Positions 3,962 through 25,343 of a stretch of DNA of 46,386 nt are shown in pieces. Source of the DNA: a virus (lineage: Duplodnaviria; Heunggongvirae; Uroviricota; Caudoviricetes); IMG/VR virus record IMGVR_UViG_2913167280_000002; one strand, written 5' to 3'. Every line of letters starts with the position of its first letter. Position 1 is the first letter of the stretch. The notes below the pieces were generated by a model, which was not told the origin of the DNA, did not search any database, and saw nothing but the letters and a program-made list of their open reading frames with translations. Made by a program: the position numbers and the translations under genes.

Positions 3962-3965
3962 TGCT

Positions 3966-7245: not shown

Positions 7246-7263
7246 AACCACATAGTGTGGGTT
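7246..7263. promoter_or_regulatory. operator-like palindrome (ACCAC-N5-GTGGG)
   Basis: aaccacatagtgtgggtt between the divergent antirepressor region and the 7398 HTH gene. Confidence 0.35.
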
Positions 7264-7397: not shown

Positions 7398-7937
7398 ATG
7401 ATTGAACTGTCAAAAAACTCATGTTTTTCAACCATTCACCTAATGATCATAAAAGAACTTAGGCTAGAAAGAGGTGTGCATCAAGGAGTACTGGCTCAAG
7501 CTGCTGGAAAAACACCAAACGCATGGACAAAGATAGAGAACGGGCAGTCTATATTAACAGTTGACGCCCTTTTTGGTGCTTTCACAGCCCTTAATATTAC
7601 TCCAGTGAATTTCATGTCATTGGTAGAAAATCTTATTCCCGAATTTAACCGTTATGGTTACTTCTTTTTCCCTGGAACAATCAGTCAGGACGAGGATAAC
7701 CTTTTACCTCTGATGCTGCGTTACTTTAATAGCAAGGGGTTTGAAGCATTGAGAAATAGGCCATTAGAAAGAGTTAGCATTAGCTCAATGGGATTCTCAT
7801 TTGGGGGCGGCATCCCTGTTACTCCAACTGCTGTAATGTATTGTTGCGATGAAGCATATAGAAATTGGGTCGATAACGGTGCTGATGTGGATAATCGAGA
7901 TTATCTGGAGTCATCAACAGGTCGTGGACTGTTTTAA
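7398..7937 (+). CDS. HTH (XRE-family) domain protein with C-terminal domain of unknown function
   Basis: N-terminal HTH segment GVLAQAAGKTPNAWTKIENG; 179 aa. Confidence 0.5.
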   Translation: MIELSKNSCFSTIHLMIIKELRLERGVHQGVLAQAAGKTPNAWTKIENGQSILTVDALFGAFTALNITPVNFMSLVENLIPEFNRYGYFFFPGTISQDEDNLLPLMLRYFNSKGFEALRNRPLERVSISSMGFSFGGGIPVTPTAVMYCCDEAYRNWVDNGADVDNRDYLESSTGRGLF

Positions 7938-7982: not shown

Positions 7983-8374
7983 GTGCTGATCGGATTCGCG
8001 GTCCTTTCAGCATTACGTTGTTGTATAAACAACCACGCAAGCACAAGCAGCAAGTTGATTTTACCCAAAAGGTAATAATAGTCCACTATTATGCTTCAAA
8101 AAATTGTGGTTCTTGTTGTGTCTGCAAACTCACAGATTGTGGGTAGGTTACTGATTTTGTGAAAATAAACTGGTTTTTTCGTTTAATTTATTTCCTATTA
8201 CTAATCTTAAAATAATCGTAAAATACCTGTGGACCTTCCCGCCGATTCGCACCCGGGCACCGACTTTAGGGGAGGATTTCCTGTTGCCGTACATGCAAGC
8301 ACAAGCAGCCGTGCTTGCTCTCGCGTTGTTTTCGTCGGTGGGGATGCCGTGAAACGGCCTGTAAGGGCCATACA

Positions 8375-8497
8375 ATGAAAAAATACTGTATGTGTATTTT
8401 TATCGTTGTTACTGGGGCTTTGTTTACGCCACATGGGGAGGGTTGGAAGATTACTGATAACGCTCTGAATGTGACGATAAACATTAGCAGCAAGTAG
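8375..8497 (+). CDS. candidate small hydrophobic peptide (40 aa)
   Basis: MKKYCMCIFIVVTGALFTPHG...; AAGGG about 8 nt upstream; ends just before the terminator at 8503. Speculative. Confidence 0.25.
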   Translation: MKKYCMCIFIVVTGALFTPHGEGWKITDNALNVTINISSK

Positions 8498-8502
8498 CGA
8501 TT

Positions 8503-8526
8503 AGGCCCCTTCGGGGGCCTTTTTTA
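8503..8526 (+). terminator. rho-independent terminator
   Basis: Stem AGGCCCC/GGGGCCT, loop TTCG, then TTTTT. Confidence 0.65.
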
Positions 8527-8747: not shown

Positions 8748-8996
8748 TTACTTCTGGTTGTATTGAGCCTTGAGTAACTCAAAAGACTTTGTCAGCACTT
8801 CTTTCAATGACATATCCATTGAGCTGGCGAACGTTTTGTACTCGCGTTTAAATTCAGGGTCGACGTTAAACGCCATTTGTGCCCCACCTGATTTGGTTCT
8901 GGTTGGCGTTTCAGTCGGGTCGAAAACCTGCGGTTGTTCGATCGATGGCGGTACGCCTTTGCTGTTCTTCTTTGGTGGTTTTGATGGTGCGGCCAT
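8748..8996 (-). CDS. ribbon-helix-helix centromere-binding protein (ParG-like)
   Basis: 82 aa, basic flexible N-terminus then RHH-like MAFNVDPEFKREYKTFAS...; AGAGGGGA RBS; directly downstream of parA. Confidence 0.55.
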   Translation of the reverse strand: MAAPSKPPKKNSKGVPPSIEQPQVFDPTETPTRTKSGGAQMAFNVDPEFKREYKTFASSMDMSLKEVLTKSFELLKAQYNQK

Positions 8997-9039
8997 GTGT
9001 ATCCCCTCTTATATAAATCTATAAAACTATAATTATATA

Positions 9040-9693
9040 TTACGCGGCAGTAGTCAGAGCCTCAAGCTGGTTGATAATCCCCTGAATAACGTCGTCTGCC
9101 TTTTTGCGTGGCGCAACGTATGAGCACTCAATGAGGCTTAAGCCCTTATCCTGAGCTTTGCTCAGAGCTGGCTTGTGGGGAATGTACTTATCGACAACAA
9201 AGTATGGCGTATTAGCCAGGTACTCTTGGGCTTCGATGTAGTCAGCTTCGTTTTCAGCCGCGCCGGAAAACACCATGCAAATTTTCTTGATTGGTACGCC
9301 CTTTTTAACGATGCCGTGAGCAGTGTTAACGGTGGTTTCAAGGTCATCGGTAGAGAATCGGGTTGGCAAAATAACCATATCCAGAAATTCAGATAGCTTC
9401 GGTACTGATTCAGATGCGTAGGCACCGCCATCAACGATAACCAGGTCGTATACTTCTGATTCGATGATTTTCTGGACTTGTGATGGCGTGCCGCACGGCT
9501 GCGCCGCGATTGCAGGTTCGATATTGTTGGCCATTCTGCGTTGTACCCAACGCGTTACCGTTCCGTTAAGCACATCCATATCGATCAGGCATACATTCCA
9601 GCCAGCCTTTGCATAAGCAACTGCTAAAGCACGGGCAATGGTTGATTTGGTTACGCCGCCTTTTCCGTTGAAAATACCTACAGATATAGTCAT
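9040..9693 (-). CDS. parA: partition ATPase ParA (small type Ib)
   Basis: Deviant Walker A GKGGVTKST; about 217 aa; GGAG RBS before the second in-frame Met. Confidence 0.8.
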   Translation of the reverse strand: MTISVGIFNGKGGVTKSTIARALAVAYAKAGWNVCLIDMDVLNGTVTRWVQRRMANNIEPAIAAQPCGTPSQVQKIIESEVYDLVIVDGGAYASESVPKLSEFLDMVILPTRFSTDDLETTVNTAHGIVKKGVPIKKICMVFSGAAENEADYIEAQEYLANTPYFVVDKYIPHKPALSKAQDKGLSLIECSYVAPRKKADDVIQGIINQLEALTTAA

Positions 9694-9714
9694 TTGTCGA
9701 GACTCCATGTGTTT

Positions 9715-9825
9715 GATTATATAATTCTATAAATCTATATTTATAGAATGAGGTAAGCATAACCAACTTTTGAGCGGATGAAAAGCACTTTATATAATTA
9801 TATAAATCTATAATATTTAAGCGGG
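9715..9825. repeat. AT-rich octamer arrays upstream of parA (candidate centromere and promoter)
   Basis: Two clusters of TTATATAA/TTATAGAT-type units. Confidence 0.4.
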
Positions 9826-10250: not shown

Positions 10251-10267
10251 AACCACAAAATGTGGTT
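10251..10267. promoter_or_regulatory. operator palindrome AACCACAAAATGTGGTT
   Basis: Perfect 17-bp palindrome between the repressor stop and the next minus-strand gene. Confidence 0.45.
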
Positions 10268-10308: not shown

Positions 10309-10965
10309 TCATAACCAGTTGACAACACTAACTACGCGGCCCAGAACTTTATAACGCTTAAATTCCTCGTTATTCAGATGCTTAGTGTTCATTTCAGCAT
10401 CCCTTTCGGTTGACAGCATAACAGCATTGTCACCCGGTATGACTCTACAGTGCCTCAAAACAACCAGGCCATTTCTGTCTTCAAGGGCATAGATCCCCTC
10501 ATGAATCTCTGTATCGTCTGTATCAATCAGGACTTGGGAGCCAGGGGATATTGTTGGTGACATTAACTCATCGTTGCTCTGGAGAACTGACAGAGACGAT
10601 GGGTTGATGTTCTTGCTTCGTAGAATCTCCTGTTCTATCGCCAGCACTGGCTTTTCTCCGGCGTGCGATGCTATGTCATTTTTTATAGCTACAAGCCCAG
10701 GAATAACAGGAGCGTTAGTATTCTGGGGTGGGAACGGGTTATCTGTTAAGCACGCGATATAAGGCGCTGATGCTTTCAGGGCGTGAGCGATTTTCTTGAT
10801 GGCAGGTATAGATGGTTGTCTTAATCCGGCCTCATAGTTCTGCAAGGTGCTTAAGCCTATTCCAGTGACTTGCTGGAGATCTCCGGCAGTCATGCCGGAT
10901 TGTTTCCGTAGAGTCTGAATGCGCAGACCTATTTCTTTCTTGATGTTCTCGTCGTTGCTTTTCAT
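10309..10965 (-). CDS. CI-like prophage repressor (HTH plus LexA/S24-like C-terminal domain)
   Basis: N-terminal HTH (LQQVTGIGLSTLQNYEAG) and C-terminal S24-like region; divergent from the early operon. Confidence 0.75.
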   Translation of the reverse strand: MKSNDENIKKEIGLRIQTLRKQSGMTAGDLQQVTGIGLSTLQNYEAGLRQPSIPAIKKIAHALKASAPYIACLTDNPFPPQNTNAPVIPGLVAIKNDIASHAGEKPVLAIEQEILRSKNINPSSLSVLQSNDELMSPTISPGSQVLIDTDDTEIHEGIYALEDRNGLVVLRHCRVIPGDNAVMLSTERDAEMNTKHLNNEEFKRYKVLGRVVSVVNWL

Positions 10966-11002: not shown

Positions 11003-11121
11003 ACCACATTTAGTGGTTTTCACGCGGTAAGACGAGATGTGGACCACAAATAGAAGGCTATTTTTTGTTTCGCCCATTGAAAAACTCACGATATGTGGTT
11101 TTAATACCACATATCGTGGTT
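11003..11121. promoter_or_regulatory. immunity-switch operator cluster
   Basis: ACCACATTTAGTGGT (11003-11017), CTCACGATATGTGGTT (11085-11100) and ACCACATATCGTGGTT (11106-11121) in the divergent intergenic region; rightward promoter-like TTGAAA-N17-TTAATA overlaps the last two. Confidence 0.5.
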
Positions 11122-11138: not shown

Positions 11139-11633
11139 ATGACCTTTCAGGAGTGGGTTGACGAAAATGGAGGCCAAATTGGTGTTGCCAGAAAGTTTGG
11201 CTTTACGTCATCACTGATTGGTGCCTGGTATCGCTTCGAGAGATTCCCTCGTGCGGATAACCTGACGCTGCTGGTGGCGTATTCGGAAGGCCGGATTAAC
11301 GTCCAGCAATGGGCGGCAGATTTTGCCGAACGTCAGCGCCAGCGTAGCGATGGCACATCGGTTCGGCAGAACAAGATCAAAGGGAATCTCCCTGTTAACT
11401 GCTTATCAAGGCTGAAAGCGGTTTTCTCTGAGCTGGGGATGCCTGCGGAGCGTTGCAATCTACGCGGTCCGCGATTCATTGCTCGCTGGAAACACTCACA
11501 CGTAACCGTTTCAGAGGTTCGTGATGCGATTGCCGTGCTGGAGTTTAAGAATAAAGATTCCAGCGATATCGAGCTGATTCATAAGGAGATTAGCAACGCC
11601 CGGCGTTCAGCACTTGGGAGGCTTGAGGAATGA
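11139..11633 (+). CDS. first early-operon protein, putative Cro-like or regulatory protein
   Basis: Divergent from the repressor; N-terminal HTH-like segment; GGAG RBS. Confidence 0.35.
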   Translation: MTFQEWVDENGGQIGVARKFGFTSSLIGAWYRFERFPRADNLTLLVAYSEGRINVQQWAADFAERQRQRSDGTSVRQNKIKGNLPVNCLSRLKAVFSELGMPAERCNLRGPRFIARWKHSHVTVSEVRDAIAVLEFKNKDSSDIELIHKEISNARRSALGRLEE

Positions 11634-12145
11634 TGATTCTGGCCTTCTTTGGTGATAATCACCAGATTCAATCGCAGGTGGTGCACTACCTTGATCAAAC
11701 GATTAAGGGATTTGTTATCGATCATATTGATAACGATAGTAAACGTCTATCTGTAGAGCAGAAAATTGGACGTGTGCAGCGACTGGTTGCCAGCCGTAAC
11801 AGACGTGACACCGTAACAGTCGTCACGGGGATAACGGAGGTCATGGAGTACCAGATGTTGCTGCATCGTGGAGCTGTTTTCTGCGTTCTTCCTGGCATTC
11901 TGCCAGCAATTCTTGCTCGTGGTTTTGTCCCTATTGATGAGTCGTTTTTATATGTAACCCCAAGCCGTTCTCTTCTGGATACGGAGGCGAAGCGTCGCAT
12001 TTATATGCTGCCGGACGAGGCATTTTCTGAATGTTACCGCCGTGAAATGAGGTTGGGTAAACGAGATGTGTCTGTTTCTCGTAATGGCAGGTTTTTAAGC
12101 AGCCGCACGGTGAAAAGCACCAGAAATGACGGGGGCCATCAATGA
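11630..12145 (+). CDS. hypothetical protein
   Basis: Translationally coupled (ATGA overlap). Confidence 0.4.
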   Translation: MMILAFFGDNHQIQSQVVHYLDQTIKGFVIDHIDNDSKRLSVEQKIGRVQRLVASRNRRDTVTVVTGITEVMEYQMLLHRGAVFCVLPGILPAILARGFVPIDESFLYVTPSRSLLDTEAKRRIYMLPDEAFSECYRREMRLGKRDVSVSRNGRFLSSRTVKSTRNDGGHQ

Positions 12146-12375
12146 GTGGTTATGTTCGCGGTGCTGCGATGCATTGCCAGAATCCCCAATTCTGGCGCTT
12201 TCTGACCAGTAAAACAGGGAAGAACATTTCAAACAGTTCTGAGGCCTCTGTGATTCTGCGTGAGTTTTGCGGGATCTCATCCCGTAAAGAGCTGGCAAAG
12301 AACTACGCGGCCAGAAGCATGTATGTCCAGTTAATCAACGAGTTCAACCTCTTTATCAATGGTAAGGGGCGCTGA
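12142..12375 (+). CDS. hypothetical protein
   Basis: Coupled ORF in the early operon. Confidence 0.35.
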   Translation: MSGYVRGAAMHCQNPQFWRFLTSKTGKNISNSSEASVILREFCGISSRKELAKNYAARSMYVQLINEFNLFINGKGR

Positions 12376-12779
12376 TGAACGGACGTACACCAACGAAGAA
12401 AGAGAAACTTTATATACAAGCGGTGCTCACTCACGTGGGTTGCATAGCTTGCATTATTGATGGCCGTGAAATTGAGAATCCAGAGCTGTGGACGGAGCTA
12501 CATCACGATCCTGATTACGGCAGCGTTGATGAGAATTGCCACTTCCATAGCTTTGGGTTGTGCGCACCACATCATCGCGGTGTTGTGCCTGGTGGTGGGC
12601 GCGTGCCTCCGCATATTGCCGTTCGTCACCCTCCCCTGAGTAATTGTGCTCGCTTTGTTGAGCGTTATGGCACCGATGAATTTTTGTGTGCGCAGACGTG
12701 GGAGCTGTTACCGCAGTCAGTTAAAGACGAAATTGGGTTTGATCTTAGTCTTGGTGAAGTACCAGGGGATACCAAATGA
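12375..12779 (+). CDS. Cys/His-rich protein, possible HNH-type nuclease
   Basis: CIACIIDG...NCHFHSFGLCAPHHRG metal-binding-like pattern. Confidence 0.35.
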   Translation: MNGRTPTKKEKLYIQAVLTHVGCIACIIDGREIENPELWTELHHDPDYGSVDENCHFHSFGLCAPHHRGVVPGGGRVPPHIAVRHPPLSNCARFVERYGTDEFLCAQTWELLPQSVKDEIGFDLSLGEVPGDTK

Positions 12780-13108
12780 GATATACCGGCTTTCGCAAAC
12801 CAGCGACCAGGAAAAGCAAATACGGCAATAAAAAAACTGTTGTCGATGATATCGCTTTTGATAGCAAAAAAGAGGCTGATTACTACTGCGAACTGAAGCT
12901 ACTGAGAAAAGCTGGCCGCGTTGTGACGTTTCTTATGCAGGTGCCTTTTCATCTGCCAGGTGGTGTCGTTTATAAACTTGATTTCATGGTGTTTTATGAC
13001 GATGGGACGATTGATTGTGTCGACACTAAAGGTGTGCGAACAGACGTCTACATCATGAAGAAAAAGCAGGTAGAGGCGCTTTATCCCGTCACGATACGGG
13101 AGATCTGA
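12776..13108 (+). CDS. hypothetical phage protein
   Basis: YGNKKTVVDDIAFDSKKEADYY motif; coupled ORF. Confidence 0.4.
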   Translation: MRYTGFRKPATRKSKYGNKKTVVDDIAFDSKKEADYYCELKLLRKAGRVVTFLMQVPFHLPGGVVYKLDFMVFYDDGTIDCVDTKGVRTDVYIMKKKQVEALYPVTIREI

Positions 13109-13111
13109 ACA

Positions 13112-13489
13112 GTGAGACGCGATCTGGATAGCTTGTTTGAGCTATGGGCGCTGTGGGTGCGCAATGGCTGCAACGCCCGTAGCGGTTTCGCGTCGATGTT
13201 AGAAATGATGATGGTTACGCGTTGCCAGTTTACCGGAGGGGGCGGCGCACCAAATGACTCACTGGAAACCAGTATCGAGGGAGCGGTGACGGCCCTCACG
13301 GTAGTTGATGAGACTGCGGCGCTGGTTGTCCGAATTGAATACGGGGCGTGGGAGATTCGGGGCCTCGACATAAATGCACCGCATATTGATAAAGCCCACG
13401 CCCTTTCTCTTAGTCTCAGACAGTATCGCCGGAAGCTGGCAAAAGCCAGGGCGTATGTTGTCGACTATTTGAAAAAGCGAAGAGAGTAA
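13112..13489 (+). CDS. hypothetical protein
   Basis: GTG start with GGGAG RBS; last gene before module B. Confidence 0.3.
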   Translation: MRRDLDSLFELWALWVRNGCNARSGFASMLEMMMVTRCQFTGGGGAPNDSLETSIEGAVTALTVVDETAALVVRIEYGAWEIRGLDINAPHIDKAHALSLSLRQYRRKLAKARAYVVDYLKKRRE

Positions 13490-13542
13490 AAGTGTCATTT
13501 TGAGCTGTTTTGATGGTGTGTAGACATCGGGAACATCGAAAA

Positions 13543-13658
13543 TCTATAAATATATAATTATATATTTATATAAAAAGTGCTTTACAGGTAGGAAAAAATT
13601 TCCTAAGGTTATACCCGAAACCGAGCGATACCCGCCCTGGTTAAACCGGAGAAATCTG
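13543..13658 (+). promoter_or_regulatory. conserved promoter/leader module, copy B
   Basis: Near-identical to copy A, with differences in the -10 (TAAGGT), the spacer and the last 7 nt. Coordinates approximate to within 1 nt. Confidence 0.6.
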
Positions 13659-14726
13659 ATGAATAAACAAGTAATTATTTCTGACTGGATCAACAACCCT
13701 AACAGCCTGTTAAGCACTGATACTGGCTACCTATTACGCCATGTTAATGGTCGTATGGTCAAAAGCGATGAGCACGAAACCTTTTTCTTTGTTGAAGACG
13801 ATGGGCGCATCTATGAGGATGGTTACTCTTATGAAGCCCAAACTGGTTGTATCCCTGCGGAGCTGGTGGACGTAACAGAAGATCTGCGCAAAGCATGGCT
13901 TGAACAGCAGCAGCGCGGAGATGATTACGTAAACACCTATCAGGAACGCCAGAACGCGCGTCTTGCCCGATATATTGCTCGTGCAGAAAAAGCCAGAAAA
14001 GAAGGTGCGGTAGCGCATAAGCGAGCGCATGACCTGTTGGATGTGATCCCGTTAGGCCAGCCGATTTTAGTTGACCATTATAGCGCGAAAGGCCATCGCC
14101 GCCGTTTGTCTAAAGCTGATGCGTTATTCAGAAAAGCGTTTGTTGAATGCGAAAGTAAAGCATCACACTACGAGAGCAAAGCCGCAGGTGTTGGTCGTAA
14201 TGGAATTTCGTCTGATGATCCTGATGCGCTATTTAAGTTGCTTCGTAAGCTGCAAGGCTGCATGAAGTCACACGTCAAAATGAAGGCCGCAAATAAGGCC
14301 ATTCGCAAATACAAAAAAGACCAATTACAGCAGCTTTCTGCATTAATCGATCTCAGGTTTACAGAAAGCGAAGCCAAAGAGTTACTGGCCGGAGATTTCT
14401 GTGGGCGCATCGGATTCCCTTCATACGCACTGAGCAACAATAACGCCGAAATCAAACGACTACAGAGCCGTATTAAGGAGCTTGAATCGGTCAAGTCTGT
14501 AACAGGAGCACAGCGCGAAGAATACGACGGCTTTTCTATGGAGATAGATCCAGAGGATAACCGCATCCTGTTTTATTTCCCTGGCAAACCAGAGGCAAAC
14601 ATTCGTTCGCTGCTTAAATCACGCGCCTTTAAGTGGAGTCCAACCCGTAATGCATGGGTTCGCAAGATTACTCCAAACGCCCTGGCTGATGCCCGATATC
14701 TGAAAGAATCGCTATTGAAAGCCTGA
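13659..14726 (+). CDS. hypothetical protein (355 aa)
   Basis: First gene behind module B; GGAG RBS. Confidence 0.5.
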   Translation: MNKQVIISDWINNPNSLLSTDTGYLLRHVNGRMVKSDEHETFFFVEDDGRIYEDGYSYEAQTGCIPAELVDVTEDLRKAWLEQQQRGDDYVNTYQERQNARLARYIARAEKARKEGAVAHKRAHDLLDVIPLGQPILVDHYSAKGHRRRLSKADALFRKAFVECESKASHYESKAAGVGRNGISSDDPDALFKLLRKLQGCMKSHVKMKAANKAIRKYKKDQLQQLSALIDLRFTESEAKELLAGDFCGRIGFPSYALSNNNAEIKRLQSRIKELESVKSVTGAQREEYDGFSMEIDPEDNRILFYFPGKPEANIRSLLKSRAFKWSPTRNAWVRKITPNALADARYLKESLLKA

Positions 14727-14803
14727 CAGTAAGCCTACGGCGGGATGTCTCCCGCCGTATATAGAATTATATATTTATATAAATGTATAAGGACGCCTCG
14801 ACA

Positions 14804-15085
14804 ATGAAACGCAAAATTATTAACCCCCAAGATGTGATTAATTTCCTGACCGATCACCCATGTTCAAAAGTGGACGTAATCGCGGAGCACATTGGTGTGT
14901 CGCAGAACTCTATGCGTTGCAGACTGAGAAGCATGGTTGCCGAAGGACAGATAACAACCAGGAAAATAAATGGTTGCCTGTACTACTCCGCTAAACCGGA
15001 ATTGCCATTTGGCATGAATCCTAACTCCATGTTGTTTAACACCTTATTAGCCAAAGTTAAGCCGTTGAGAGGGGCTGTGGCATGA
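14804..15085 (+). CDS. small putative winged-helix DNA-binding protein
   Basis: Preceded by an AT-rich octamer array; start at second in-frame Met. Confidence 0.35.
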   Translation: MKRKIINPQDVINFLTDHPCSKVDVIAEHIGVSQNSMRCRLRSMVAEGQITTRKINGCLYYSAKPELPFGMNPNSMLFNTLLAKVKPLRGAVA

Positions 15086-15447
15086 GCATCAAAACCCATA
15101 CCGGAATAATCATCACCATTGATGGTGAGAAAAAAGTGAAGTTACGCGAAACGCCGACAACCTGGTGTGTTGGTCCGAAAGAAACATATCGCAAGGAAGA
15201 TGGGCGCCGTTGTGGGTCGCCACTTTCCAGCCGTCGCCTCCTTTTGAGCACGATAAAACCTATCGGGCAGGTTGAGCAACCAACGACTCCGGTAACGAAG
15301 ATTTCAGACAAGAGTCTGGCAAACCTGATCGCTGATGCGGACAAGGTGCTGGAGCGAAATACCCCCGTTGCAGATGAGGAATGGTGGCAGGATTTCCGAG
15401 CCGCAATGCTAGAGCTTCAGGAACGTCGTCGGGAGGAGTTGAAGTGA
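15082..15447 (+). CDS. hypothetical protein
   Basis: ATGA-coupled ORF. Confidence 0.4.
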   Translation: MSIKTHTGIIITIDGEKKVKLRETPTTWCVGPKETYRKEDGRRCGSPLSSRRLLLSTIKPIGQVEQPTTPVTKISDKSLANLIADADKVLERNTPVADEEWWQDFRAAMLELQERRREELK

Positions 15448-15698
15448 GTGGATCAAATTGTCGAATTAATGGCAATCGAATAGAGCCGTGTGCTGCATTG
15501 GCAAAGTCTCTTGAGCGTGATGCTGAATGCTCAGTAAGAAAAGGCTTACTGCTATACAAAATCTGGAATGAGAGTTTAACCCGTGGACCTGATTTGGTGA
15601 TGTTGCGTTCCGGTGAGTTTTCTAAATCACCGATTCGAGTTTCATTTTGCCCGTTCTGTGGTGAAAGTCTGAAAACGTGGGAGGAAACCAATGAGTGA
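15444..15698 (+). CDS. hypothetical protein with C-terminal CxxC pair
   Basis: GTG start with GGGAGGAG RBS; FCPFCG motif. Confidence 0.35.
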   Translation: MSGSNCRINGNRIEPCAALAKSLERDAECSVRKGLLLYKIWNESLTRGPDLVMLRSGEFSKSPIRVSFCPFCGESLKTWEETNE

Positions 15699-16227
15699 CC
15701 AATGGCGACCAGAAATTTGTCCGATAACCGGACGTGCATTTTTCATGTGGATTGAGCATCCAACATTGGGAAATGTGCCGACATATGGTGGCCCATTAGA
15801 TAGTTACACCATTCCAACAAAGGACGGTGACGGTGAGTTTTCATGTGAGCGTTACGATCATGATTTTGGCGGTTGGGTAGAAAGCGAATGTCTTGGGTTA
15901 TATCTGATTGATGATAGAGAACAATGCAGGGTCTACGAACTGGAGGAACGCATTGCAGAACTGGAAGCACGGGAAATAAAACCAGCCAAAGGTGAAGTTC
16001 TTGTCGTTGTATCTGGTTTTACTGGTTGCGGAAAAAGCGCCATCGCCGGGGAAATAGAAATCGCGATGAAGGCTATTGGTGTACCGGTTCAGTGGACTAA
16101 TGGTGATGCAGAAAAGCGCATGACCGGCGCTGACTGGCTGACAGCAATTGAGATGTACAAACCAACTGTGCGCATTGTGGAAGTTAATGTGCCACGCGTC
16201 GCTGGCGTTCGCATCAAAGGAGAGTGA
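15691..16227 (+). CDS. hypothetical protein
   Basis: Coupled ORF, 178 aa. Confidence 0.4.
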   Translation: MSDQWRPEICPITGRAFFMWIEHPTLGNVPTYGGPLDSYTIPTKDGDGEFSCERYDHDFGGWVESECLGLYLIDDREQCRVYELEERIAELEAREIKPAKGEVLVVVSGFTGCGKSAIAGEIEIAMKAIGVPVQWTNGDAEKRMTGADWLTAIEMYKPTVRIVEVNVPRVAGVRIKGE

Positions 16228-16228
16228 C

Positions 16229-16588
16229 GTGGAAATAAAACCAGAAGATGAGTTAAGTAATATTGTTTTATTTCCGGTAAAAGAGGATGACCCACGTAAT
16301 CAGGTTAATTTTCTTTATGAGCCATCGGAAAGACCATACTGCCATCACGCTTCTGTCCGGGTTGACGAAAAAGAGCGTCAGGTCCGCTGCAAAATCTGTG
16401 GTGCAGTTGTGGAGCCGTTTGACTGGATGCTCTCTGTGGCTAAAAGAGAAACCAGACTGGCAGATGATGTAAGGCTATTGCGCCAGGAGGAACAGGAAAG
16501 GCGAAAAAATATAGAAAAGCTAATTCAGATTGAGCGTAACGCGAAAGCGCGGATACGCAGGGCAACAAAAGCCAGAACTGAATATTAA
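16229..16588 (+). CDS. hypothetical protein with CxxC-type zinc-ribbon motif
   Basis: GTG start after AAAGGAGAGTGAC; RCKICG motif. Confidence 0.35.
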   Translation: MEIKPEDELSNIVLFPVKEDDPRNQVNFLYEPSERPYCHHASVRVDEKERQVRCKICGAVVEPFDWMLSVAKRETRLADDVRLLRQEEQERRKNIEKLIQIERNAKARIRRATKARTEY

Positions 16589-16633
16589 ATCAGCACTGTA
16601 AATAAAATTTAATCCTTAACCGGAGGTATATCT

Positions 16634-16846
16634 ATGTTAAATACACAGAAAACCATTAACGCGGAAAAATATAACGAGTGGGTAAAAAAATTCTCTGAGC
16701 AGATTTTTAAGATTACTGGTGACGAGAATGTAGCAAAAAATGAATTAGAGCCGTGGACACCTGAAGGAACCGACCCAAATTATTGCTGGTGGGAGGTTGA
16801 TCCGGTTGATGCTGCAAATGAAGCCATGAGTTACCACAACGATTAA
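16634..16846 (+). CDS. hypothetical protein
   Basis: GGAGG RBS. Confidence 0.4.
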   Translation: MLNTQKTINAEKYNEWVKKFSEQIFKITGDENVAKNELEPWTPEGTDPNYCWWEVDPVDAANEAMSYHND

Positions 16847-16908
16847 TGTCGGGATGCCGCCCGAAAGGGCGGTAATAAAAATGGCTGAACTAATCGGAGA
16901 ACAAAACG

Positions 16909-17097
16909 ATGAAAAACCGTAAAGCAAAAATTCTTTTGACCTGTAGAAATGCTCGCGGCATCCAGCAATGGTTAAAACTCAGTAACCGCAGAATGGGGCT
17001 GTTCACAAATACGGCTGATATTGTGATGTGTTCACTTAACAAGCCCAGCGCGGCGCAAAACCGCTGGAAAAACCACTTGCGCACTAAAGGAGAGTGA
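16909..17097 (+). CDS. hypothetical protein
   Basis: GGAGA RBS. Confidence 0.35.
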   Translation: MKNRKAKILLTCRNARGIQQWLKLSNRRMGLFTNTADIVMCSLNKPSAAQNRWKNHLRTKGE

Positions 17098-17098
17098 T

Positions 17099-17317
17099 GT
17101 GCCAACATTATTCAGGAAAAATTATCCGCGAAGAAGCAGAACGATAGAATTTCTGTTTTTCATTGTGTTTATCGTGTTGCTGATACCGATATCCCCGTTA
17201 ATCCTGGTCTGGGTAATCGGAAAATTAGTTGAACCAGTTATTGAGTTATATACCGACGTGACATCGGAGCCATTCAACGCACTGCACAGTAAAATTAATC
17301 CATATAAGGAAAACTGA
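17099..17317 (+). CDS. small membrane protein
   Basis: GTG start after AAAGGAGAGTGAT; one hydrophobic helix FLFFIVFIVLLIPISPLILVWVIG. Confidence 0.35.
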   Translation: MPTLFRKNYPRRSRTIEFLFFIVFIVLLIPISPLILVWVIGKLVEPVIELYTDVTSEPFNALHSKINPYKEN

Positions 17318-17318
17318 A

Positions 17319-17693
17319 ATGGCTTTTACCGACAAAGAAATGATTAAAGAAATCAAAGAACGTATCAGCAGCCTGGACGTGCGAGACAATATTGAGCGCC
17401 GGGCTTATGAAATAGCGTTAGCCTCGCTGGAAGCAGAACCGGTGGCATGGACTGATGACGAGGAACTGCGAGATGTTGAGCAAATTGGTTTAGGTTATTT
17501 ATTACCTTGTCCTCCAGATAAATACGCAGACCCGCGTCGTGTAATTCCTCTGTATCGCGAGCTGCCAGCACCGGTAGTGCCGGATGAAATGTATTGGCAG
17601 GATGCGCCAGTTGAAGGCAGCAGCAAAGCGGCTGCATACGCTACAGGCTGGAACGCCTGCCGCGCAGCCATGCTTCAGGGGAAAGGGAAGTGA
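17319..17693 (+). CDS. hypothetical protein
   Basis: Coupled ORF; shares an EPVAW segment with the next protein. Confidence 0.4.
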   Translation: MAFTDKEMIKEIKERISSLDVRDNIERRAYEIALASLEAEPVAWTDDEELRDVEQIGLGYLLPCPPDKYADPRRVIPLYRELPAPVVPDEMYWQDAPVEGSSKAAAYATGWNACRAAMLQGKGK

Positions 17694-17703
17694 TATGGCT
17701 ACT

Positions 17704-17970
17704 TTTACCAAAGAGCAATTGATTGCCCATATTCGTGAACGTAAGGAAGCGCGCCAGAGAATGTTGGATACGGTAACTATTAACCCCGGATTTCGTGAAT
17801 ATCTTGAAAGAGAGCTTGCTACAGATGAAATTGCACTGGCATCCCTGGCATCTGCACCTGTTGCATGGCTAGTTGGAGGGCGTTTGTTCACAACTGAGAT
17901 AGCTGCGGGGATGTACGCTAGTGAGGTGAGGAAAGCAGTTAAGCCGCTATTCTTTTCTGCACTACTGTGA
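17704..17970 (+). CDS. hypothetical protein (paralog-like to the preceding ORF)
   Basis: LASLASAPVAWLVG versus LASLEAEPVAWTDD in the 17319 protein. Confidence 0.35.
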   Translation, partial: FTKEQLIAHIRERKEARQRMLDTVTINPGFREYLERELATDEIALASLASAPVAWLVGGRLFTTEIAAGMYASEVRKAVKPLFFSALL

Positions 17971-18115
17971 GTATTGTTTTTTTATTGATCGATTAACCAC
18001 ATTTTGAAGGTTTTTTTTATGGGAAAACCTTGTTTTAGGTGGTAACTGGGTGTAGTGTTTCATTTAACGTAGTAAAACTGCGTTAAGCGATTACCGCGTA
18101 ATTTGTTGCTTTATG

Positions 18116-18147
18116 AAGCCCTGCCTTTTCGGCGGGGCTTTTTTTTT
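18116..18147 (+). terminator. rho-independent terminator immediately upstream of the lysis cassette
   Basis: 9-bp stem AGCCCTGCC/GGCGGGGCT followed by nine T; ends 14 nt before the holin ATG. Confidence 0.65.
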
Positions 18148-18160
18148 AACGAGGATTTCA

Positions 18161-18556
18161 ATGTCAGCAGAACCAATTTCCGGTACGGCCGTTGCTGCTG
18201 GTGGCCTGATGGGTGCCAGCGTTTTTGGTATTGCAACTGGTATTGATTACGGCGTTGTATTCGGGGCATTTGCTGGCGCTGTTTTCTATGTTGCTACAGC
18301 GGTGAATATTAGCCGTCTCAAGCTGATTGGCTATTTCTTTACATCGTTCATTGTTGGAGTGATTGGAGCGCCGTTAGTTGGCTCATTTCTTGCCAAATGG
18401 ACCAGCTACAACGATCGACCTCTTGATGCGCTTGGTGCGGTTATTGTGGCTGCATTGACAATTAAAATCCTCACGTTCGTAAACAGCCAGGATCTCGGTA
18501 GCATCTTTGGAATGCTTTCCCGCTTACGTGGAGGGGGTTCAAATGGTAAGCAGTGA
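18161..18556 (+). CDS. putative holin
   Basis: 132 aa, about three transmembrane segments, first gene of the lysis cassette. Confidence 0.5.
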   Translation: MSAEPISGTAVAAGGLMGASVFGIATGIDYGVVFGAFAGAVFYVATAVNISRLKLIGYFFTSFIVGVIGAPLVGSFLAKWTSYNDRPLDALGAVIVAALTIKILTFVNSQDLGSIFGMLSRLRGGGSNGKQ

Positions 18557-18839
18557 CCCGTCAGCACTGATTAATGCGGTGCTTTGCACAGTAATAGTAA
18601 TGGCGCTGATGCTTTATCGACGGAAAGACTCCAGGCATCGTCCAGTTGTTTCCTTTCTGGCTTATATCTACGTCATTGTATACGCCAATGTTCCCTTCCG
18701 TTATGTGTTCGGTCTTTATCAAGAATCCCACTGGCTGGTGGTTATTGGAAATCTGATTATCTGCGTCGTTGTTCTGTATTTCAGGGGAAATCTGGCGCGG
18801 ATAGTTGACGCATTAGGGTTTAATCATGACCAAAGATGA
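18543..18839 (+). CDS. membrane protein (holin-associated, possible second holin or antiholin)
   Basis: Two to three hydrophobic helices; overlaps both neighbours. Confidence 0.4.
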   Translation: MVSSDPSALINAVLCTVIVMALMLYRRKDSRHRPVVSFLAYIYVIVYANVPFRYVFGLYQESHWLVVIGNLIICVVVLYFRGNLARIVDALGFNHDQR

Positions 18840-19368
18840 GATTTTTAACAGCATTCTTGGAAAAGAGGGCGGCTATGTGGATCACCCTGACGACAAGGGA
18901 GGCCCAACAAAGTGGGGCATTACTCAGAACACTGCCCGTGCTCATGGATACCGTGGCGATATGCGCGATTTAACTCGCGAACAGGCTCTGGAAATCCTTG
19001 AGGCTGATTACTGGTACGGCCCACGTTTTGACCAGATAGCAACTCTGTCGCCGGATATTGCCGCAGAACTGTGCGACACGGGCGTCAACATGGGGCCAAC
19101 AGTGGCGTCAAAAATGCTTCAACGCTGGCTGAATGTGTTCAATCTGCGTGGGAAGCTGTATCCCGATTTGGATGCAGATGGACGAATTGGTCCACGTACC
19201 ATTAATGCGCTGCGTGCTTATCTTGGGAATCGGGGAAAAGACGGCGAACGGGTGATGCTGACGTCGCTGAACTGTACGCAGGGCGAACGCTATCTGGAGT
19301 TGGCGGAGAAGCGCGAGGCTAATGAGTCGTTTGTCTACGGCTGGATGAAAGAGCGAGTGGTGGTATGA
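18826..19368 (+). CDS. endolysin (glycoside hydrolase family 108-like with peptidoglycan-binding domain)
   Basis: N-terminal ILGKEGGYVDHPDDKGGPTKWGIT signature. Confidence 0.7.
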   Translation: MTKDEIFNSILGKEGGYVDHPDDKGGPTKWGITQNTARAHGYRGDMRDLTREQALEILEADYWYGPRFDQIATLSPDIAAELCDTGVNMGPTVASKMLQRWLNVFNLRGKLYPDLDADGRIGPRTINALRAYLGNRGKDGERVMLTSLNCTQGERYLELAEKREANESFVYGWMKERVVV

Positions 19369-19643
19369 CTGGTTTGAAGGCCGTTTTGTCATTTATTGGC
19401 ACAATTATATTGGTTGCATTCGGCGCGTTTGGTTTTGGTCGTATGAAGGGGCGAGAAAAGGCCGAAGATGAAGCTGAAAAGCAGCGCATTAATGAGAATG
19501 TAGCCGCCGTAAAAGCCACTGCGGAGCGGCGTATAGAAGTGACAAAAGAGGTGGGGAATGTACAGCAGAGTGTTAACCATATGGCTGATGACGATGTTGA
19601 TCGCGAGCTGCGGGAGTCGTGGAAGCGTCCCGGTGGTGGTTGA
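19365..19643 (+). CDS. i-spanin (Rz-like)
   Basis: N-terminal transmembrane helix then charged, coiled-coil-like region; follows the endolysin. Confidence 0.5.
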   Translation: MTGLKAVLSFIGTIILVAFGAFGFGRMKGREKAEDEAEKQRINENVAAVKATAERRIEVTKEVGNVQQSVNHMADDDVDRELRESWKRPGGG

Positions 19644-19767
19644 TACCGCCTGTGATTGGGTAAAGCCCATCTACCTGACTGATCACGACATCGATGTTAT
19701 GGACCGCCAGACAAAGAAAGATATTCTGGCTCATAACAGGGCATGGGAAATCAACTGCCGAAAGTAA
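19558..19767 (+). CDS. o-spanin lipoprotein (Rz1-like), overlapping the i-spanin gene in another frame
   Basis: Signal peptide with lipobox LIASC; starts inside the i-spanin gene in a different frame. Confidence 0.45.
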   Translation: MYSRVLTIWLMTMLIASCGSRGSVPVVVDTACDWVKPIYLTDHDIDVMDRQTKKDILAHNRAWEINCRK

Positions 19768-19936
19768 TATATATTTCTATAATTATATAAATATATAGTT
19801 ACAACATTCTATGCGCTTTTCTCATGGGTGCACGCATCAACCATGTTTGTCTGATATGCCGCCGCGCCCAAAAATCCTGAATTTATTGGCTGGGATTTTC
19901 GTGCGCGGCGCCACACCAGACAAACAAATCAAATAT

Positions 19937-20012
19937 GGCCCCTTAGCTCAGTGGTTAGAGCAGGCGACTCATAATCGCACGGTCATCGGTTCAAGTCCGG
20001 TAGGGGCCACCA
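19937..20012 (+). tRNA. tRNA with CAU anticodon (Met or lysidine-modified Ile)
   Basis: 76 nt; 7-bp acceptor stem, D-arm GCTC/GAGC, anticodon loop CTCATAA, T-loop TTCAAGT, encoded CCA; one G-A mismatch at the top of the anticodon stem. Confidence 0.75.
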
Positions 20013-20315
20013 ATTCACTCTCACACATAAAGATAAGCGCGGTGGAGTTACTTCTTCGTGCTCATCTTTATGCGTGCCTGGTGCACATTTCGGGAAGCCG
20101 TTGGTTAGTGAGTACAGGCAGGGCCTGTTATCCGCAAAGGGGTAAAAGCTGGAGCGGCACGGAACTGTAGCCGTGTTACCAAAACAGCGTTGTCGGGCGA
20201 TATCCGGCACACAACAGGCAAGGGCATTAATCAGTCTGGCTAGTGCCCTTTTCGTTGTGTCTGCTGTAGAGCTGGCCAGCGTTATGACTGCCTGAGCGGC
20301 GGAGACATAACTAAC

Positions 20316-20903
20316 ATGGAGGCAATTGCATTGTTTAATCTGATTTATGCAGATCCCCCCTGGGAATACAAAGACAAGTGTAAGGATGGGAATCGTGGCG
20401 CTGGTTTTAAGTATCCAACGATGAAAGCTGAGGAGATTGCTCGTATTCCTGTCTGGCAGCTTGCTAATCCTGAATCGTGTTTGTTGGCCATGTGGTGGGT
20501 TCCGACTCAGCCAGAAGAAGCGTTGCTGGTGGTGAAAGCATGGGGATTCAGGCTTATGACCATGAAGGGCTTCACATGGAACAAATGTGGTAGCCGACAA
20601 CCAGATAAGCTGGTGATGGGAATGGGGCATATGACTCGTGCAAACAGTGAAGATTGCTTGTTTGCAGTGAAAGGCAAACTACCGACACGTCTTGATGCGG
20701 GGATCATTCAGTCGTTTACATCGCCTCGTCTGGAGCATTCTCGGAAGCCTGATGTGGTCCGTGACAAGCTGGTAAAGCTGTTAGGCGATGTTCCTCGTAT
20801 TGAGCTGTTTGCTCGCGGTGATTTACCTGATGGCTGGCATGGCTGGGGCAACCAGTGCAACGGAGGTATCCAGTTGCATGATGCTCTCTGGCAAGTGTCA
20901 TAG
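20316..20903 (+). CDS. MT-A70-family DNA N6-adenine methyltransferase
   Basis: DPPW catalytic motif in LIYADPPWEY near the N-terminus; 195 aa. Confidence 0.7.
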   Translation: MEAIALFNLIYADPPWEYKDKCKDGNRGAGFKYPTMKAEEIARIPVWQLANPESCLLAMWWVPTQPEEALLVVKAWGFRLMTMKGFTWNKCGSRQPDKLVMGMGHMTRANSEDCLFAVKGKLPTRLDAGIIQSFTSPRLEHSRKPDVVRDKLVKLLGDVPRIELFARGDLPDGWHGWGNQCNGGIQLHDALWQVS

Positions 20904-21015
20904 AATTATATAATTATAGATTTATATAAAAAGTGCTTTACAGGTGGGAAAAAATTTCCTATGGTTATACCCGAAACCGAGCGATACCCGCCCTGGTTAA
21001 ACCGGAGATAACCCG
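20899..21015 (+). promoter_or_regulatory. conserved promoter/leader module, copy C
   Basis: Identical to copy A from the -35 region to the ATG, one substitution in the AT-rich box; TTTACA at 20937-20942. Confidence 0.6.
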
Positions 21016-23346: not shown

Positions 23347-23970
23347 ATGACAAAACAACTTAATGTGGTTTCTTTACCACTTTCTGTGTTGATTGGTTAT
23401 GAAAAGAACGCTCGCACACACTCCGTGGAGCAGGTAGATCAGATTGTTGCCAGCATACAGGAGTACGGATGGACTAATCCGATCCTGATAGACGAGAACA
23501 ACGTTGTAATTGCTGGTCATGGTCGAATTGCTGCGGCCACTCAGTTGGGGATGGATGATGTTCCCTGCATTGTTCTGGCTGGGCTAACGGAGAATCAGAA
23601 GAAGGCATATCGTCTGGCCGACAACCGTATTCCGCTGAATGCTGGTTGGGATGAAGAGCTGTTAAGCGCGGAGCTTGCAGATCTTGCGGCCGATGATTTT
23701 GCTCTGGACTCAATTGGTTTTACTCAGCGCGAACTGGATAACTTATTGAGTGCGGCGGTCTACGATGACACAGAGGGTATGGATATCCCATTTGAGAAGG
23801 ATGAGGCCAAATCAGGCGTAAAAGTTCAGTACCTGTCATTTGGAGGTCATAAAATCCCGGCAACGGATGAGGAAGCGGATCGTTTTGACTGCGCGGTGTC
23901 TCGTTATGTTGATGATAATGGCAGCTATATCGGATTTGTATCCGCATTGCTGGCTGGGGAGGTGTGCTGA
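23347..23970 (+). CDS. ParB-like nuclease-domain protein
   Basis: ParB N-terminal-domain pattern ...NPILIDENNVVIAGHGRIAAA...; paralogous to the 26636 protein. Confidence 0.6.
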   Translation: MTKQLNVVSLPLSVLIGYEKNARTHSVEQVDQIVASIQEYGWTNPILIDENNVVIAGHGRIAAATQLGMDDVPCIVLAGLTENQKKAYRLADNRIPLNAGWDEELLSAELADLAADDFALDSIGFTQRELDNLLSAAVYDDTEGMDIPFEKDEAKSGVKVQYLSFGGHKIPATDEEADRFDCAVSRYVDDNGSYIGFVSALLAGEVC

Positions 23971-25343
23971 TGCTTCACCTGAATTACGACATAACGCACC
24001 TACGCGGCGCGGAATATAACCCGCGTTTTATCGGTGAGGATGATCTTGCGAGGCTGGAGGAAAGCGTCAGGGAGCTGGGGCTTGTGAAGCCATTGATAGT
24101 GCGCGGCGATTTGCTGGTGGCGGGACACCAAAGGACGAAGGCGCTACGTAAGTTGGGAATAACGCGTGCTGCGGTGTATGTGTTGCCCTGTGAAACGACG
24201 GTATACGACGAAGTTCGGTTTAACCAACTGCATAACGGAACGGATTTTGATAGCGGAGATGAGCGTTGCAGGGTGTCCGGTCTGGAAGATAAGCATGGTT
24301 TTGTTCAGGTATCGGCAAGCCAGATCTCAGGCAATATGCGCGCGAAAATGGCATATGTTCGAAAGAACATAGCGGAACTGGTTATCAAGTATGGTCCGTG
24401 GGGTGGTTGTGTTGCTACTCAGTCTGGCGAGGTTATTCACTGTGCTCAGTATGCATTAGCAGCGAAGATGACGCGCACACCGCTAACGGTGTTTGTGATC
24501 CCTGATGTTGAGAAGGAAAAATACCAAAGTTATCTGAATAAAACTTATGGTGTATTTGAGTATTCTCATCTGGAGAAAACAACATACATCCAGACGTATG
24601 CGCAGCTTATGCGGTTGCGTAATGGTGGCAGCCTGAAATCAAACCTGTATGAGTCGTTGATCCTCCCGATCATTGCCAAGACGCCAAGAGGAATTGATTT
24701 TGGTTCGGGGCAGGGAGACTACGCGCGAATGCTCAGGGCAAAGGGGTATAACCTGCATGATCTTGAGCTTTTCCGCCGTAAGGGCGCAGGAAACACTCTG
24801 GATAGGGCTGCAACAAACCGAATGATTGATACGCTGGTGGACGACTTAAAAACGCGAGGGCGTTACGACTACGTGATTTGCGATAGCGTTTTGAACTCGG
24901 TCGATAGTGTCGAGGCTGAATGGTCCGTTCTGACGGTTCTGAAAGGCCTGTGTAAAGCTGGTGGGTCAATATTCTTTTCTGGCCGTAGCCGTGGAGAGCT
25001 GGAGAGTGTGCTTAAACGAACGCAAGCTGCTAGCTCTATAAGTCGGCTTTATTTTATTGACCATAACGGTTTTTCTGCTTTGTACCGGAAGGGACACTGG
25101 TTTTATCAGAAGTTTCATTCTGATGAGGAAGTGAAGCAATTGTGCCGTGAGCATAGCTTCAGAATAAAGCGGTCGGTATTTAACGGTAAGAGCTGGTATT
25201 TGCACGTTATTAACGATGATTCTCTTCGCTGGGAGAGTCTGGAGAAAGCTGTTCGTTTTGAGTTTGAGTTGCCGTTGCCTGGTGGTTCAACAATCGGACG
25301 ATCTGATGATGTGTTGGCGGCTTTCCGGCCGTTGATTAAGTAG
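23970..25343 (+). CDS. fusion protein: ParB-like N-terminal domain plus class I SAM-dependent methyltransferase domain
   Basis: N-terminal ParB-like block (LVAGHQRTKALRKLG); C-terminal GIDFGSGQGDY motif I and YDYVICDSVLNSV motif II; no DPPY-type amino-methyltransferase motif seen. Confidence 0.55.
   Translation: MLHLNYDITHLRGAEYNPRFIGEDDLARLEESVRELGLVKPLIVRGDLLVAGHQRTKALRKLGITRAAVYVLPCETTVYDEVRFNQLHNGTDFDSGDERCRVSGLEDKHGFVQVSASQISGNMRAKMAYVRKNIAELVIKYGPWGGCVATQSGEVIHCAQYALAAKMTRTPLTVFVIPDVEKEKYQSYLNKTYGVFEYSHLEKTTYIQTYAQLMRLRNGGSLKSNLYESLILPIIAKTPRGIDFGSGQGDYARMLRAKGYNLHDLELFRRKGAGNTLDRAATNRMIDTLVDDLKTRGRYDYVICDSVLNSVDSVEAEWSVLTVLKGLCKAGGSIFFSGRSRGELESVLKRTQAASSISRLYFIDHNGFSALYRKGHWFYQKFHSDEEVKQLCREHSFRIKRSVFNGKSWYLHVINDDSLRWESLEKAVRFEFELPLPGGSTIGRSDDVLAAFRPLIK

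Follow-up and report, generated by a model that had tools for sequence, protein, structure and literature searches.

An accessory gene block with a DUF3560 head and an exchangeable tail in an IncFII-type Escherichia coli phage-plasmid

Positions 13659–17970 of virus record IMGVR_UViG_2913167280_000002 (Caudoviricetes; 46,386 nt, the whole stretch analysed, called the window below) are filled by eleven open reading frames (ORFs) of the plus strand, g1–g11, which are read here, with a probability of roughly 0.55, as an accessory, non-structural and non-replicative transcription domain made up of an establishment head and an exchangeable, host-modulating tail. A fixed head (g1–g3) and an exchangeable tail (g4–g11) were observed directly among related elements; the functions are assigned by analogy. 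The window is a ~46-kb IncFII-type E. coli phage-plasmid, in which a temperate myovirus is combined with plasmid functions; the phage-plasmid label of the initial annotation was correct, because RepA (IncFII type, encoded at 830–1810; PF02387, E 1e-43), a ParA ATPase (9040–9708), a serine resolvase and HigBA coexist with lysis, terminase and tail genes.

The eleven ORFs are real genes, since PHROG family matches were obtained for all eleven products and dN/dS, calculated pairwise against homologues, was 0.01–0.46 for every gene (purifying selection; the value of g1 was taken from the 95% identical E. albertii copy, and dS was saturated for g2). On the basis of ribosome-binding sites (RBS) and the annotation of relatives, three starts were moved (g4 to GTG 15444, g6 to GTG 16229, g11 to ATG 17695), and the start of g2 is most likely 14804 (Table 1). 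Seven of the ten junctions overlap or are 1–2 nt apart (g2/g3, g3/g4, g4/g5, g5/g6, g8/g9, g9/g10, g10/g11); wider gaps were found at g1/g2 (77 nt), g6/g7 (45 nt) and g7/g8 (62 nt). The tightly coupled same-strand genes of the initial annotation were thus recovered from ORFs, junctions and dN/dS, as were its descriptions of the proteins: a 355-aa product (g1), a winged-helix protein (g2), Cys-rich or zinc-ribbon proteins (g4 and g6), a membrane protein (g9) and two PVAW paralogues (g10 and g11; BLASTP, 40% identity over 55 aa, E 2e-6).

The absence of a functional call was also essentially right. Pfam thresholds were passed by DUF3560 (g1) and DUF4014 (g9) alone, NCBIfam gave nothing useful for ten of the eleven proteins, and no defence protein of PADLOC-DB was matched by the ten proteins searched (g8 not included). 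Replication, recombination, defence and known anti-defence domains were not found in g1–g11 (Pfam; NCBIfam and PADLOC on ten), nor was any primase, helicase, polymerase, initiator or recombinase domain seen; a PDB sequence search with the eleven proteins concatenated gave no match. Characterised replication or recombination homologues, which according to the initial annotation would have spoken against its reading, were not found.

Close relatives of the element are the Yersinia phages vB_YpM_39/41/44 and 58 non-mobilizable plasmids of 46–52 kb (a further record has 94 kb), almost all of Escherichia origin and including that of E. coli ATCC 25922; a scan of genome contigs for close relatives returned distant Clostridia matches only. 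In nine of nine close relatives examined, g1–g3 were found at the same coordinates with 95–100% aa identity (g2, 100%). The tail genes were distributed as follows: g4 in two of the nine, g5 in four, g8 in five, g11 in one; g6, g7 and g9 in none; the distance from g3 to the holin gene varied from 1.8 to 3.9 kb. Genes g4–g11 are freely shuffled accessory cargo. Coverage of the region did not exceed 61% in any PLSDB plasmid and 67% in any complete E. coli genome, and pieces of it were present in 3059 of 5426 E. coli genomes, mostly in chromosomal prophages. The architecture is retained in a K. aerogenes element (g1, 70% identical; g2, 47%), where the order is early operon, DUF3560 gene, 93-aa winged-helix gene, different small genes, Ead_Ea22 proteins, lysis genes and MT-A70.

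DUF3560 (PF12083) was matched by residues 94–216 of g1 (E 3.8e-31; 108.2 bits versus a cutoff of 27.2). All invariant columns of the family are retained (I130, P131, G133, Q134, P135, L137, H140, S142, R147, S184, D187, P188 … S327, R335), together with its motifs IPxGQPIL..H.S….R, SSDDP and the C-terminal F.W.P…W.R. Homologues are usually ~265 aa long, corresponding to g1 residues 90–355; the extra 90-aa N-terminal domain of g1 is limited to Enterobacterales-type copies. A profile of 54 homologues recovered 8,956 representatives at 50% identity; a PDB search with the DUF3560 profile gave nothing, and functional studies of DUF3560 or DUF4014 were not found in the literature. The AlphaFold2 model of g1 (predicted local distance difference test, pLDDT, 90.7) shows a helical bundle and a small alpha/beta domain, and a zincin-like metalloprotease domain is absent (Pfam). 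The N-terminal domain was also considered as a cryptic ArdC-N (PF08401) and rejected (no Pfam hit; hhalign against the ArdC-N of fusion proteins, probability 0.3%).

Elsewhere DUF3560 was found fused to ArdC-N, within ArdC-N plus MPTase-PolyVal proteins of 1,100–1,800 aa, in LPD25-LPD29-DUF3560 proteins and in one LPD30-DUF3560-LPD29 protein. Such polyvalent proteins contain the same DUF3560 core, whereas g1 is a solo form without ArdC-N, protease or LPD domain; both the ArdC-N and the metalloprotease domain of ArdC proteins are lacking in it. Conjugative plasmids accounted for 229 of 415 plasmids with a DUF3560 tblastn match. The gene neighbours included SSB (the protein that binds single-stranded DNA), a DNA methylase and the type IV coupling protein; series of very small ORFs next to Rep and ParE; and ParA-KorB-KorA and LPD29; in the PromA plasmid pSN1104-34 the gene lies near kleA/kfrA/ssb/korA-incC-korB. 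In pO157 the DUF3560 gene has been listed among neighbours annotated as antirestriction protein, DUF1380 protein and SSB (PMC11125564). Iyer et al. (2017) proposed that polyvalent proteins of conjugative elements enter the recipient with DNA and counter restriction, and described solo forms of their domains in phages and plasmids; the main text neither names nor assigns DUF3560 (PMC5512222).

Since ArdC-N/metallopeptidase polyvalent proteins and the ssb/methylase/kor regions of conjugative plasmids contain DUF3560 as an effector-type domain, g1 would probably act on incoming or newly replicating DNA of the element, or on a host factor attacking such DNA, and g1–g3 would by analogy constitute the establishment module of the element. 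The only remote relatives of g2 were Klebsiella phage proteins carrying the annotation MarR-like regulator. In g3 two small modules, each of which is found by itself in other prophages, are fused, the N-terminal one resembling ArgO145 gp20.

Establishment regions of conjugative plasmids (pO157, pSN1104-34, Pseudomonas and Proteus elements) likewise contain a DUF3560 gene followed by small same-strand ORFs, with ssb, orphan methylase, ParB-like and kor/par genes as neighbours. Co-oriented small genes that vary between related elements are common to such leading regions and to the present block, whereas ardA, klcA, psiB, ssb and methylase genes were not recognised among g1–g11, methylases being encoded only elsewhere in the element. 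Further differences are the lack of oriT, relaxase and type IV secretion system (plasmid typing, 58 of 58 family plasmids non-mobilizable; no relaxase or secretion system gene seen among the window ORFs examined) and the entry of the DNA in double-stranded form via the phage tail. The resemblance to leading regions proposed by the initial annotation therefore held for the hypervariable accessory character of the block and for DUF3560, typical of establishment regions, and failed for oriT and relaxase; as the element is without a conjugative transfer origin, "leading region" is an analogy only.

A counter-defence island, with g1 as anti-restriction factor and the tail as a set of host-immunity inhibitors expressed first after DNA entry, was judged unlikely. 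The fusions of DUF3560 to ArdC-N and polyvalent domains would fit it, and some database entries are named "Antirestriction protein" or "ArdC"; however, where a solo DUF3560 protein is called "ArdC", the name comes from annotation transfer and not from experiments, and g1 has neither ArdC-N nor a metalloprotease. The tail is hypervariable, as is typical of anti-defence loci made up of very small genes on one strand; the element also has three orphan methyltransferase/ParB-like genes. Against these points, the element has no oriT and hence no true leading region, those homologues of the tail class that have been tested influence the lysis–lysogeny choice (PMC7093339), and no known anti-defence or defence family was recognised among the eleven proteins (Pfam; NCBIfam and PADLOC on ten). 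The anti-defence genes of the initial annotation were accordingly not recovered; since the run contains no known defence, anti-defence or replication domain, the anti-defence or host-takeover reading is one of association.

A lytic replication/recombination module is highly improbable and largely refuted. It would draw on phrog_19458, labelled "primase", which matches g1 residues 173–351 (E 2e-37), on the Walker-A-like motif GFTGCGKS of g5, on the zinc ribbons and on the early operon upstream, in which O/P-type genes were not recognised. The "primase" label was, however, backed by neither domain nor fold: the helical bundle of the g1 model has no primase-like neighbour, and no primase, helicase, polymerase, TOPRIM, archaeo-eukaryotic primase or recombinase domain was found (Pfam/NCBIfam). 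Moreover, g4–g11 are dispensable across relatives, the RepA initiator is encoded elsewhere in the element, and the Ref-like nuclease and the DUF1064 protein lie upstream, outside the block.

The tail of the block is related to the exo-xis ("ea") region of lambda and Stx phages (ea22, orf60a, orf61, orf63, orf73 and a variable set), which likewise consists of small same-strand genes, partly conserved. Exo-xis region homologues were found for g5–g9 and g11; g1–g3 were not in that set as whole genes. Protein g6 is 99% identical to Stx phage ArgO145 gp17 (dN/dS 0.014) and g9 is 68% identical to ArgO145 gp12; these genes and gp16, the g7 homologue, lie in ArgO145 between exo/ssb and the antirepressor/int end. 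A chromosomal lambdoid prophage of E. coli E1 contains the g6–g9 block at 99.9% identity, in the leftward early (pL) operon between cIII-kil-RecT…Ea22-like and xis/int. The exo-xis region is located between recombination genes and xis/int, whereas the present block is flanked by the early rightward operon and the lysis cassette and is headed by a DUF3560 gene with its own iteron promoter. BLAST similarity of lambda's own exo-xis genes to any of g1–g11 was not observed, and Pfam gave no match for ten cargo proteins of relatives.

A second source of cassettes is indicated by P7, the hea operon of which (upf86.8 to upf91.7) is likewise an accessory operon of small uncharacterised genes in a phage-plasmid and shares the g4 and g5 homologues: Upf87.4 has 76% identity with g4, and the C-terminal part of Upf88.3 (Ead/Ea22-like) has 69% identity with g5. 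P7 differs in being a 100-kb P1-type element, in the lack of a DUF3560 head and in the C1 operator Op(hea) of the hea operon; no repressor operator was seen in the present block. Protein g5 (AlphaFold2 model, pLDDT 42.6) ends in …RIKGE, as in lambda Ea22, and the tail …AGIRIKGE is common to Ea22-like proteins of lambda, P7, pMS21199B and ArgO145. The junction repeat CGCAYYAAAGGAGAGTGAYGTG, encoding the …(I/T)KGE tail, is present in two copies, at 16210–16231 (g5/g6) and 17080–17101 (g8/g9); judged by its sequence, the repeated junction would be a module boundary and a candidate recombination linker for cassette exchange. The cassette-boundary junction is also written AAAGGAGAGTGAYGTG.

By analogy with these systems, g4–g11 would supply interchangeable small host-modulating proteins of the Ea22 type, which, shortly after the element enters or is induced, would tune host physiology or the choice between lysis and lysogeny. 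The Ea22-class genes tested (Ea22, orf60a/61/63) shift the lysis–lysogeny balance, not defence (PMC7093339, PMC8614690), and the exo-xis-class members studied alter this balance (PMC10834534).

Expression of the block would probably start from P_g1, a putative sigma-70 promoter preceded by four 8-bp iterons, perhaps with read-through from the early promoter in addition. P_g1 belongs to one of three near-identical promoter/leader cassettes of ~118 bp (3965–4082, 13542–13658 and 20898–21015), each built of four TTATAKAW iterons, AAAGTGC, TTTACA, a 17-nt spacer, TAWGGT and an identical leader with RBS up to the ATG; the −10 hexamer is TATGGT in the copies at 4004–4032 and 20937–20965, both detected by the promoter scan, and TAAGGT in that of g1. 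A 126-aa ORF, g1 and an 89-aa ORF, respectively, stand behind the three cassettes. The leader did not fold into a significant structure (z −0.6). In the K. aerogenes relative the positions of iterons and cassettes are kept; the cassette copies are under concerted evolution, as indicated by copies in that relative which match one another and yet are unlike those of the E. coli element.

Arrays with three or more iteron 8-mers numbered six in the window, as compared with 0.02 in shuffles. Apart from the cassettes and the array before g2, TTATAKAW iterons are present on both sides of the parA promoter (9715–9748 and 9788–9815), at 9009–9026, where they precede the RBS of the gene for an 82-aa ParG-like protein (8748–8996, the partner of ParA) in the same arrangement as before g2, and at 19767–19798. 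The P_g1 cassette shares the iterons TTATATAA and the −35 region with the par operon. Expression of the block is probably modulated by whichever protein binds these iterons; since the same iterons bracket the parA promoter, the ParG-like protein would be the best candidate and would co-regulate the block, the par operon and the two other cassettes, and the arrays may serve as operators and/or dispersed centromeres for this ribbon-helix-helix (RHH)-like protein. Comparison of the E. coli with the K. aerogenes element gave 91% conservation for the ParG-like protein and 47% for g2, with unchanged iterons, a correlative observation.

Global regulons of partition proteins are represented by omega of pSM19035, ParG/parH of TP228, KorB of IncP and the dispersed sopC of N15. 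As in these systems, short repeats lie in arrays on both sides of the par promoter and also stand before other operons of the replicon; the 8-bp period resembles the spacing of ParG boxes, and the candidate binder is small, has an RHH-like C-terminus and is encoded beside parA. The repeat TTATATAA differs in sequence from the repeats of those systems, and the binder is a candidate by sequence only.

Likely CI operators (palindromic ACCACAT-N3-GTGGT) were seen at 10252–10266, 11003–11017 and 11106–11120, in the immunity region with the CI/S24 repressor gene (10309–10965), and related palindromes at 779–793, just upstream of repA, and 7247–7261, near the C4 region, hinting at a possible repressor control of replication and immI. 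CI-type operators are absent from the g1 and g2 regions. The block would be expressed early or constitutively rather than late; the early timing of the initial annotation is a prediction, the promoter having no CI operator and carrying iterons of the par operon instead.

The promoter without CI operator, with iterons and a −35 region shared with a par operon that must be on in the plasmid state, would also suit lysogenic conversion, i.e., expression by the resident plasmid-prophage of genes for superinfection exclusion, defence or host fitness; the small membrane protein g9 and the terminators that insulate the block from the lysis genes point the same way. This explanation was rated as rather unlikely, the same cassettes being found in repressor-controlled early operons of lambdoid prophages and P7; PADLOC detected no defence protein (ten proteins), and no strong terminator stops read-through from the early promoter.

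The eleven genes are one terminator-bounded domain, as the cassette lies upstream and terminator hairpins follow g11. As to the single operon of the initial annotation, the genes are co-oriented and mostly overlapping, but the conserved hairpin at 14736–14759 and the iteron array at 14759–14790 separate g1 from g2, so that two transcription units, g1 and g2–g11, are probable. In the K. aerogenes relative (L021) the stem of this hairpin is kept and its loop is different. The 190-nt spacer between g11 and the holin gene (17971–18160) is strongly structured (z −4.2) and contains three hairpins, one of them a strong terminator, but no good sigma-70 promoter; the lysis and late genes would therefore probably need antitermination or an activator.

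Such a factor might be sought in the head itself, g2, perhaps with g1 or g3, serving as activator or antiterminator for lysis and late genes and the tail being a passenger. Protein g2 is of DNA-binding type and conserved in all nine relatives, the lysis genes are placed behind two terminators with no good sigma-70 promoter found there, and no Q-like or late regulator was recognised elsewhere, the product of 13112–13489 having no Pfam or PDB match. This assignment was nevertheless regarded as quite improbable: homology to a known late activator or antiterminator is lacking, g2 is 47% identical in the K. aerogenes relative, yet its candidate targets are unchanged, and the 355-aa DUF3560 protein would be left without a role. 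The product of 13112–13489 was itself considered as a Q-type antiterminator, with the cassette as a PR'-like late promoter, and provisionally set aside for want of Pfam or PDB support.

Several points weigh against the preferred reading of g1–g11 as an establishment head with a host-modulating accessory tail. All its functional statements are guilt by association; no protein of the run gave a match above threshold to a characterised anti-defence, defence, regulatory or enzymatic family, and the g1 model had no informative structural neighbour. Proteins g5, g10 and g11 were below the Ead_Ea22 threshold (PF13935; no NCBIfam ead/Ea22-like match either), and Ea22 family members are the sole tested relatives of the run. 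The 82-aa ParG-like protein, the candidate iteron binder, has no Pfam or PDB match. As the promoter is without CI operators, it may be the plasmid state, and not early infection, in which g1–g11 are expressed.

A bolder combination would join a DUF3560 counter-restriction/establishment head for tail-injected double-stranded and conjugative single-stranded DNA, a ParG regulon with TTATATAA arrays as dispersed centromeres and a recombination hotspot for cassette trading at g4–g11. The three promoter cassettes would then belong to the regulon of the partition protein, and lambdoid and P1-type phages would be the partners with which the slot swaps cassettes for counter-defence or host takeover. 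As a joint claim this is tentative and would have to be called unlikely.

Around the block, the early rightward operon (11139–13489) encodes three unknown proteins, the Ref-like RecA-dependent nuclease, the DUF1064 protein and the 125-aa unknown protein; the element is without an integrase. A secondary immunity region of P1/P7 type is located at 5609–7187 on the minus strand, and a full-length match to the ryfA small RNA family (8229–8525, 143 bits) lies between a helix-turn-helix (HTH) gene (7398–7937) and the par genes. Downstream of the block the holin (start 18161), endolysin and Rz genes (18161–19767) are followed by tRNA-Met, three methyltransferase/ParB-like genes, and terminase and structural genes. 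A 34-nt inverted repeat (85% complementary; 19844–19926 / 19937–20012) is placed directly upstream of tRNA-Met and another (20022–20076) just downstream of it. The MT-A70 gene and the two ParB_N genes could have a self-methylation or anti-restriction role; speculatively, these three genes would lie on the first-injected end, if cos/pac were just upstream of terS.

Table 1. Coordinates of the genes and sequence elements of the block and of selected neighbouring features (window numbering).
Feature	Position	Strand	Remarks
ORF6N + Rha antirepressor	5609–6760	−	in secondary immunity region
C4 antisense RNA	7002–7090	−	77.8 bits; in secondary immunity region
isrK	7115–7187	−	in secondary immunity region
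Ref-like RecA-dependent nuclease	12375–12779		early rightward operon
DUF1064 protein	12776–13108		early rightward operon
Conserved 125-aa protein	13112–13489		early rightward operon
Four 8-bp iterons ATCTATAA ATATATAA TTATATAT TTATATAA	13542–13573		end 7 nt upstream of P_g1 −35
P_g1, putative sigma-70 promoter	13581–13609	+	−35 TTTACA, 17-nt spacer, −10 TAAGGT; consensus match
Conserved cassette leader and RBS (…TTAAACCGGAGA…)	13610–13658	+
g1, 355 aa	13659–14726	+	N-terminal beta domain (1–60), DUF3560 helical bundle, C-terminal alpha/beta domain
Hairpin after g1, GC-rich, 10 bp	14736–14759	+	z −3.0; may partly terminate transcription or stabilise an RNA end
Second iteron array ATATAGAA TTATATAT TTATATAA ATGTATAA	14759–14790		abuts g2 RBS
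g2, 93 aa, winged HTH	14804–15085	+	phrog_1687, E 3e-31; weak HTH_24/FaeA matches
g3, 121 aa, two-module	15082–15447	+	residues 1–63 similar to free-standing 67–70-aa prophage proteins; 71–120 to other proteins
g4, 84 aa, Cys-rich, C-terminal CPFC	15444–15698	+	phrog_4030
g5, 178 aa	15691–16227	+	two C-terminal modules of ead/Ea22-like (PF13935) proteins, without Ea22 N-terminus
Junction CGCATCAAAGGAGAGTGACGTG (g5/g6)	16210–16231	+	…IKGE stop, RBS, GTG start of next gene
g6, 119 aa, zinc ribbon then coiled coil	16229–16588	+	weak Zn_Ribbon_TF (TFIIB Zn-ribbon) match, E 1.7e-4
g7, 70 aa	16634–16846	+	phrog_4659; 90% identical to ArgO145 gp16
g8, 62 aa, basic, ends …TKGE	16909–17097	+	phrog_1380
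g9, 72 aa, single-pass membrane protein, DUF4014	17099–17317	+	PF13198, E 1.2e-22; phrog_1832
g10, 124 aa, "EPVAW" protein	17319–17693	+	phrog_5117
g11, 91 aa, "APVAW" protein	17695–17970	+	phrog_5117; 100% identical to pMS21199B ORF
First hairpin after g11, terminator-like, then GUUUUAGG	18007–18031	+
Strong intrinsic terminator	18115–18150	+	11-bp stem + T9 run; 10 nt before holin RBS
MT-A70 methyltransferase	20316–20903		upstream of terminase genes
ParB_N protein	23347–23970		upstream of terminase genes
ParB_N-methyltransferase fusion	23964–25343		upstream of terminase genes

The block is an ordinary type of accessory operon, in which exo-xis/ea cassettes are joined to a plasmid-style DUF3560 head; all of its parts are already in public databases, though uncharacterised, and current concepts are left unchanged. 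The interest is modest and lies mainly in a handle on DUF3560 and in the iteron/partition regulon. DUF3560 is a large and unexplained family of ~9,000 clusters (50% identity), found widely in conjugative plasmids and polyvalent proteins as well as in this common E. coli phage-plasmid family, for which the ATCC 25922 plasmid offers a tractable genetic system. Because the iterons are shared, partition and the control of accessory genes may be linked. A single pool of "ea" genes serves lambdoid prophages, P1-type elements and the present IncFII-type phage-plasmid.

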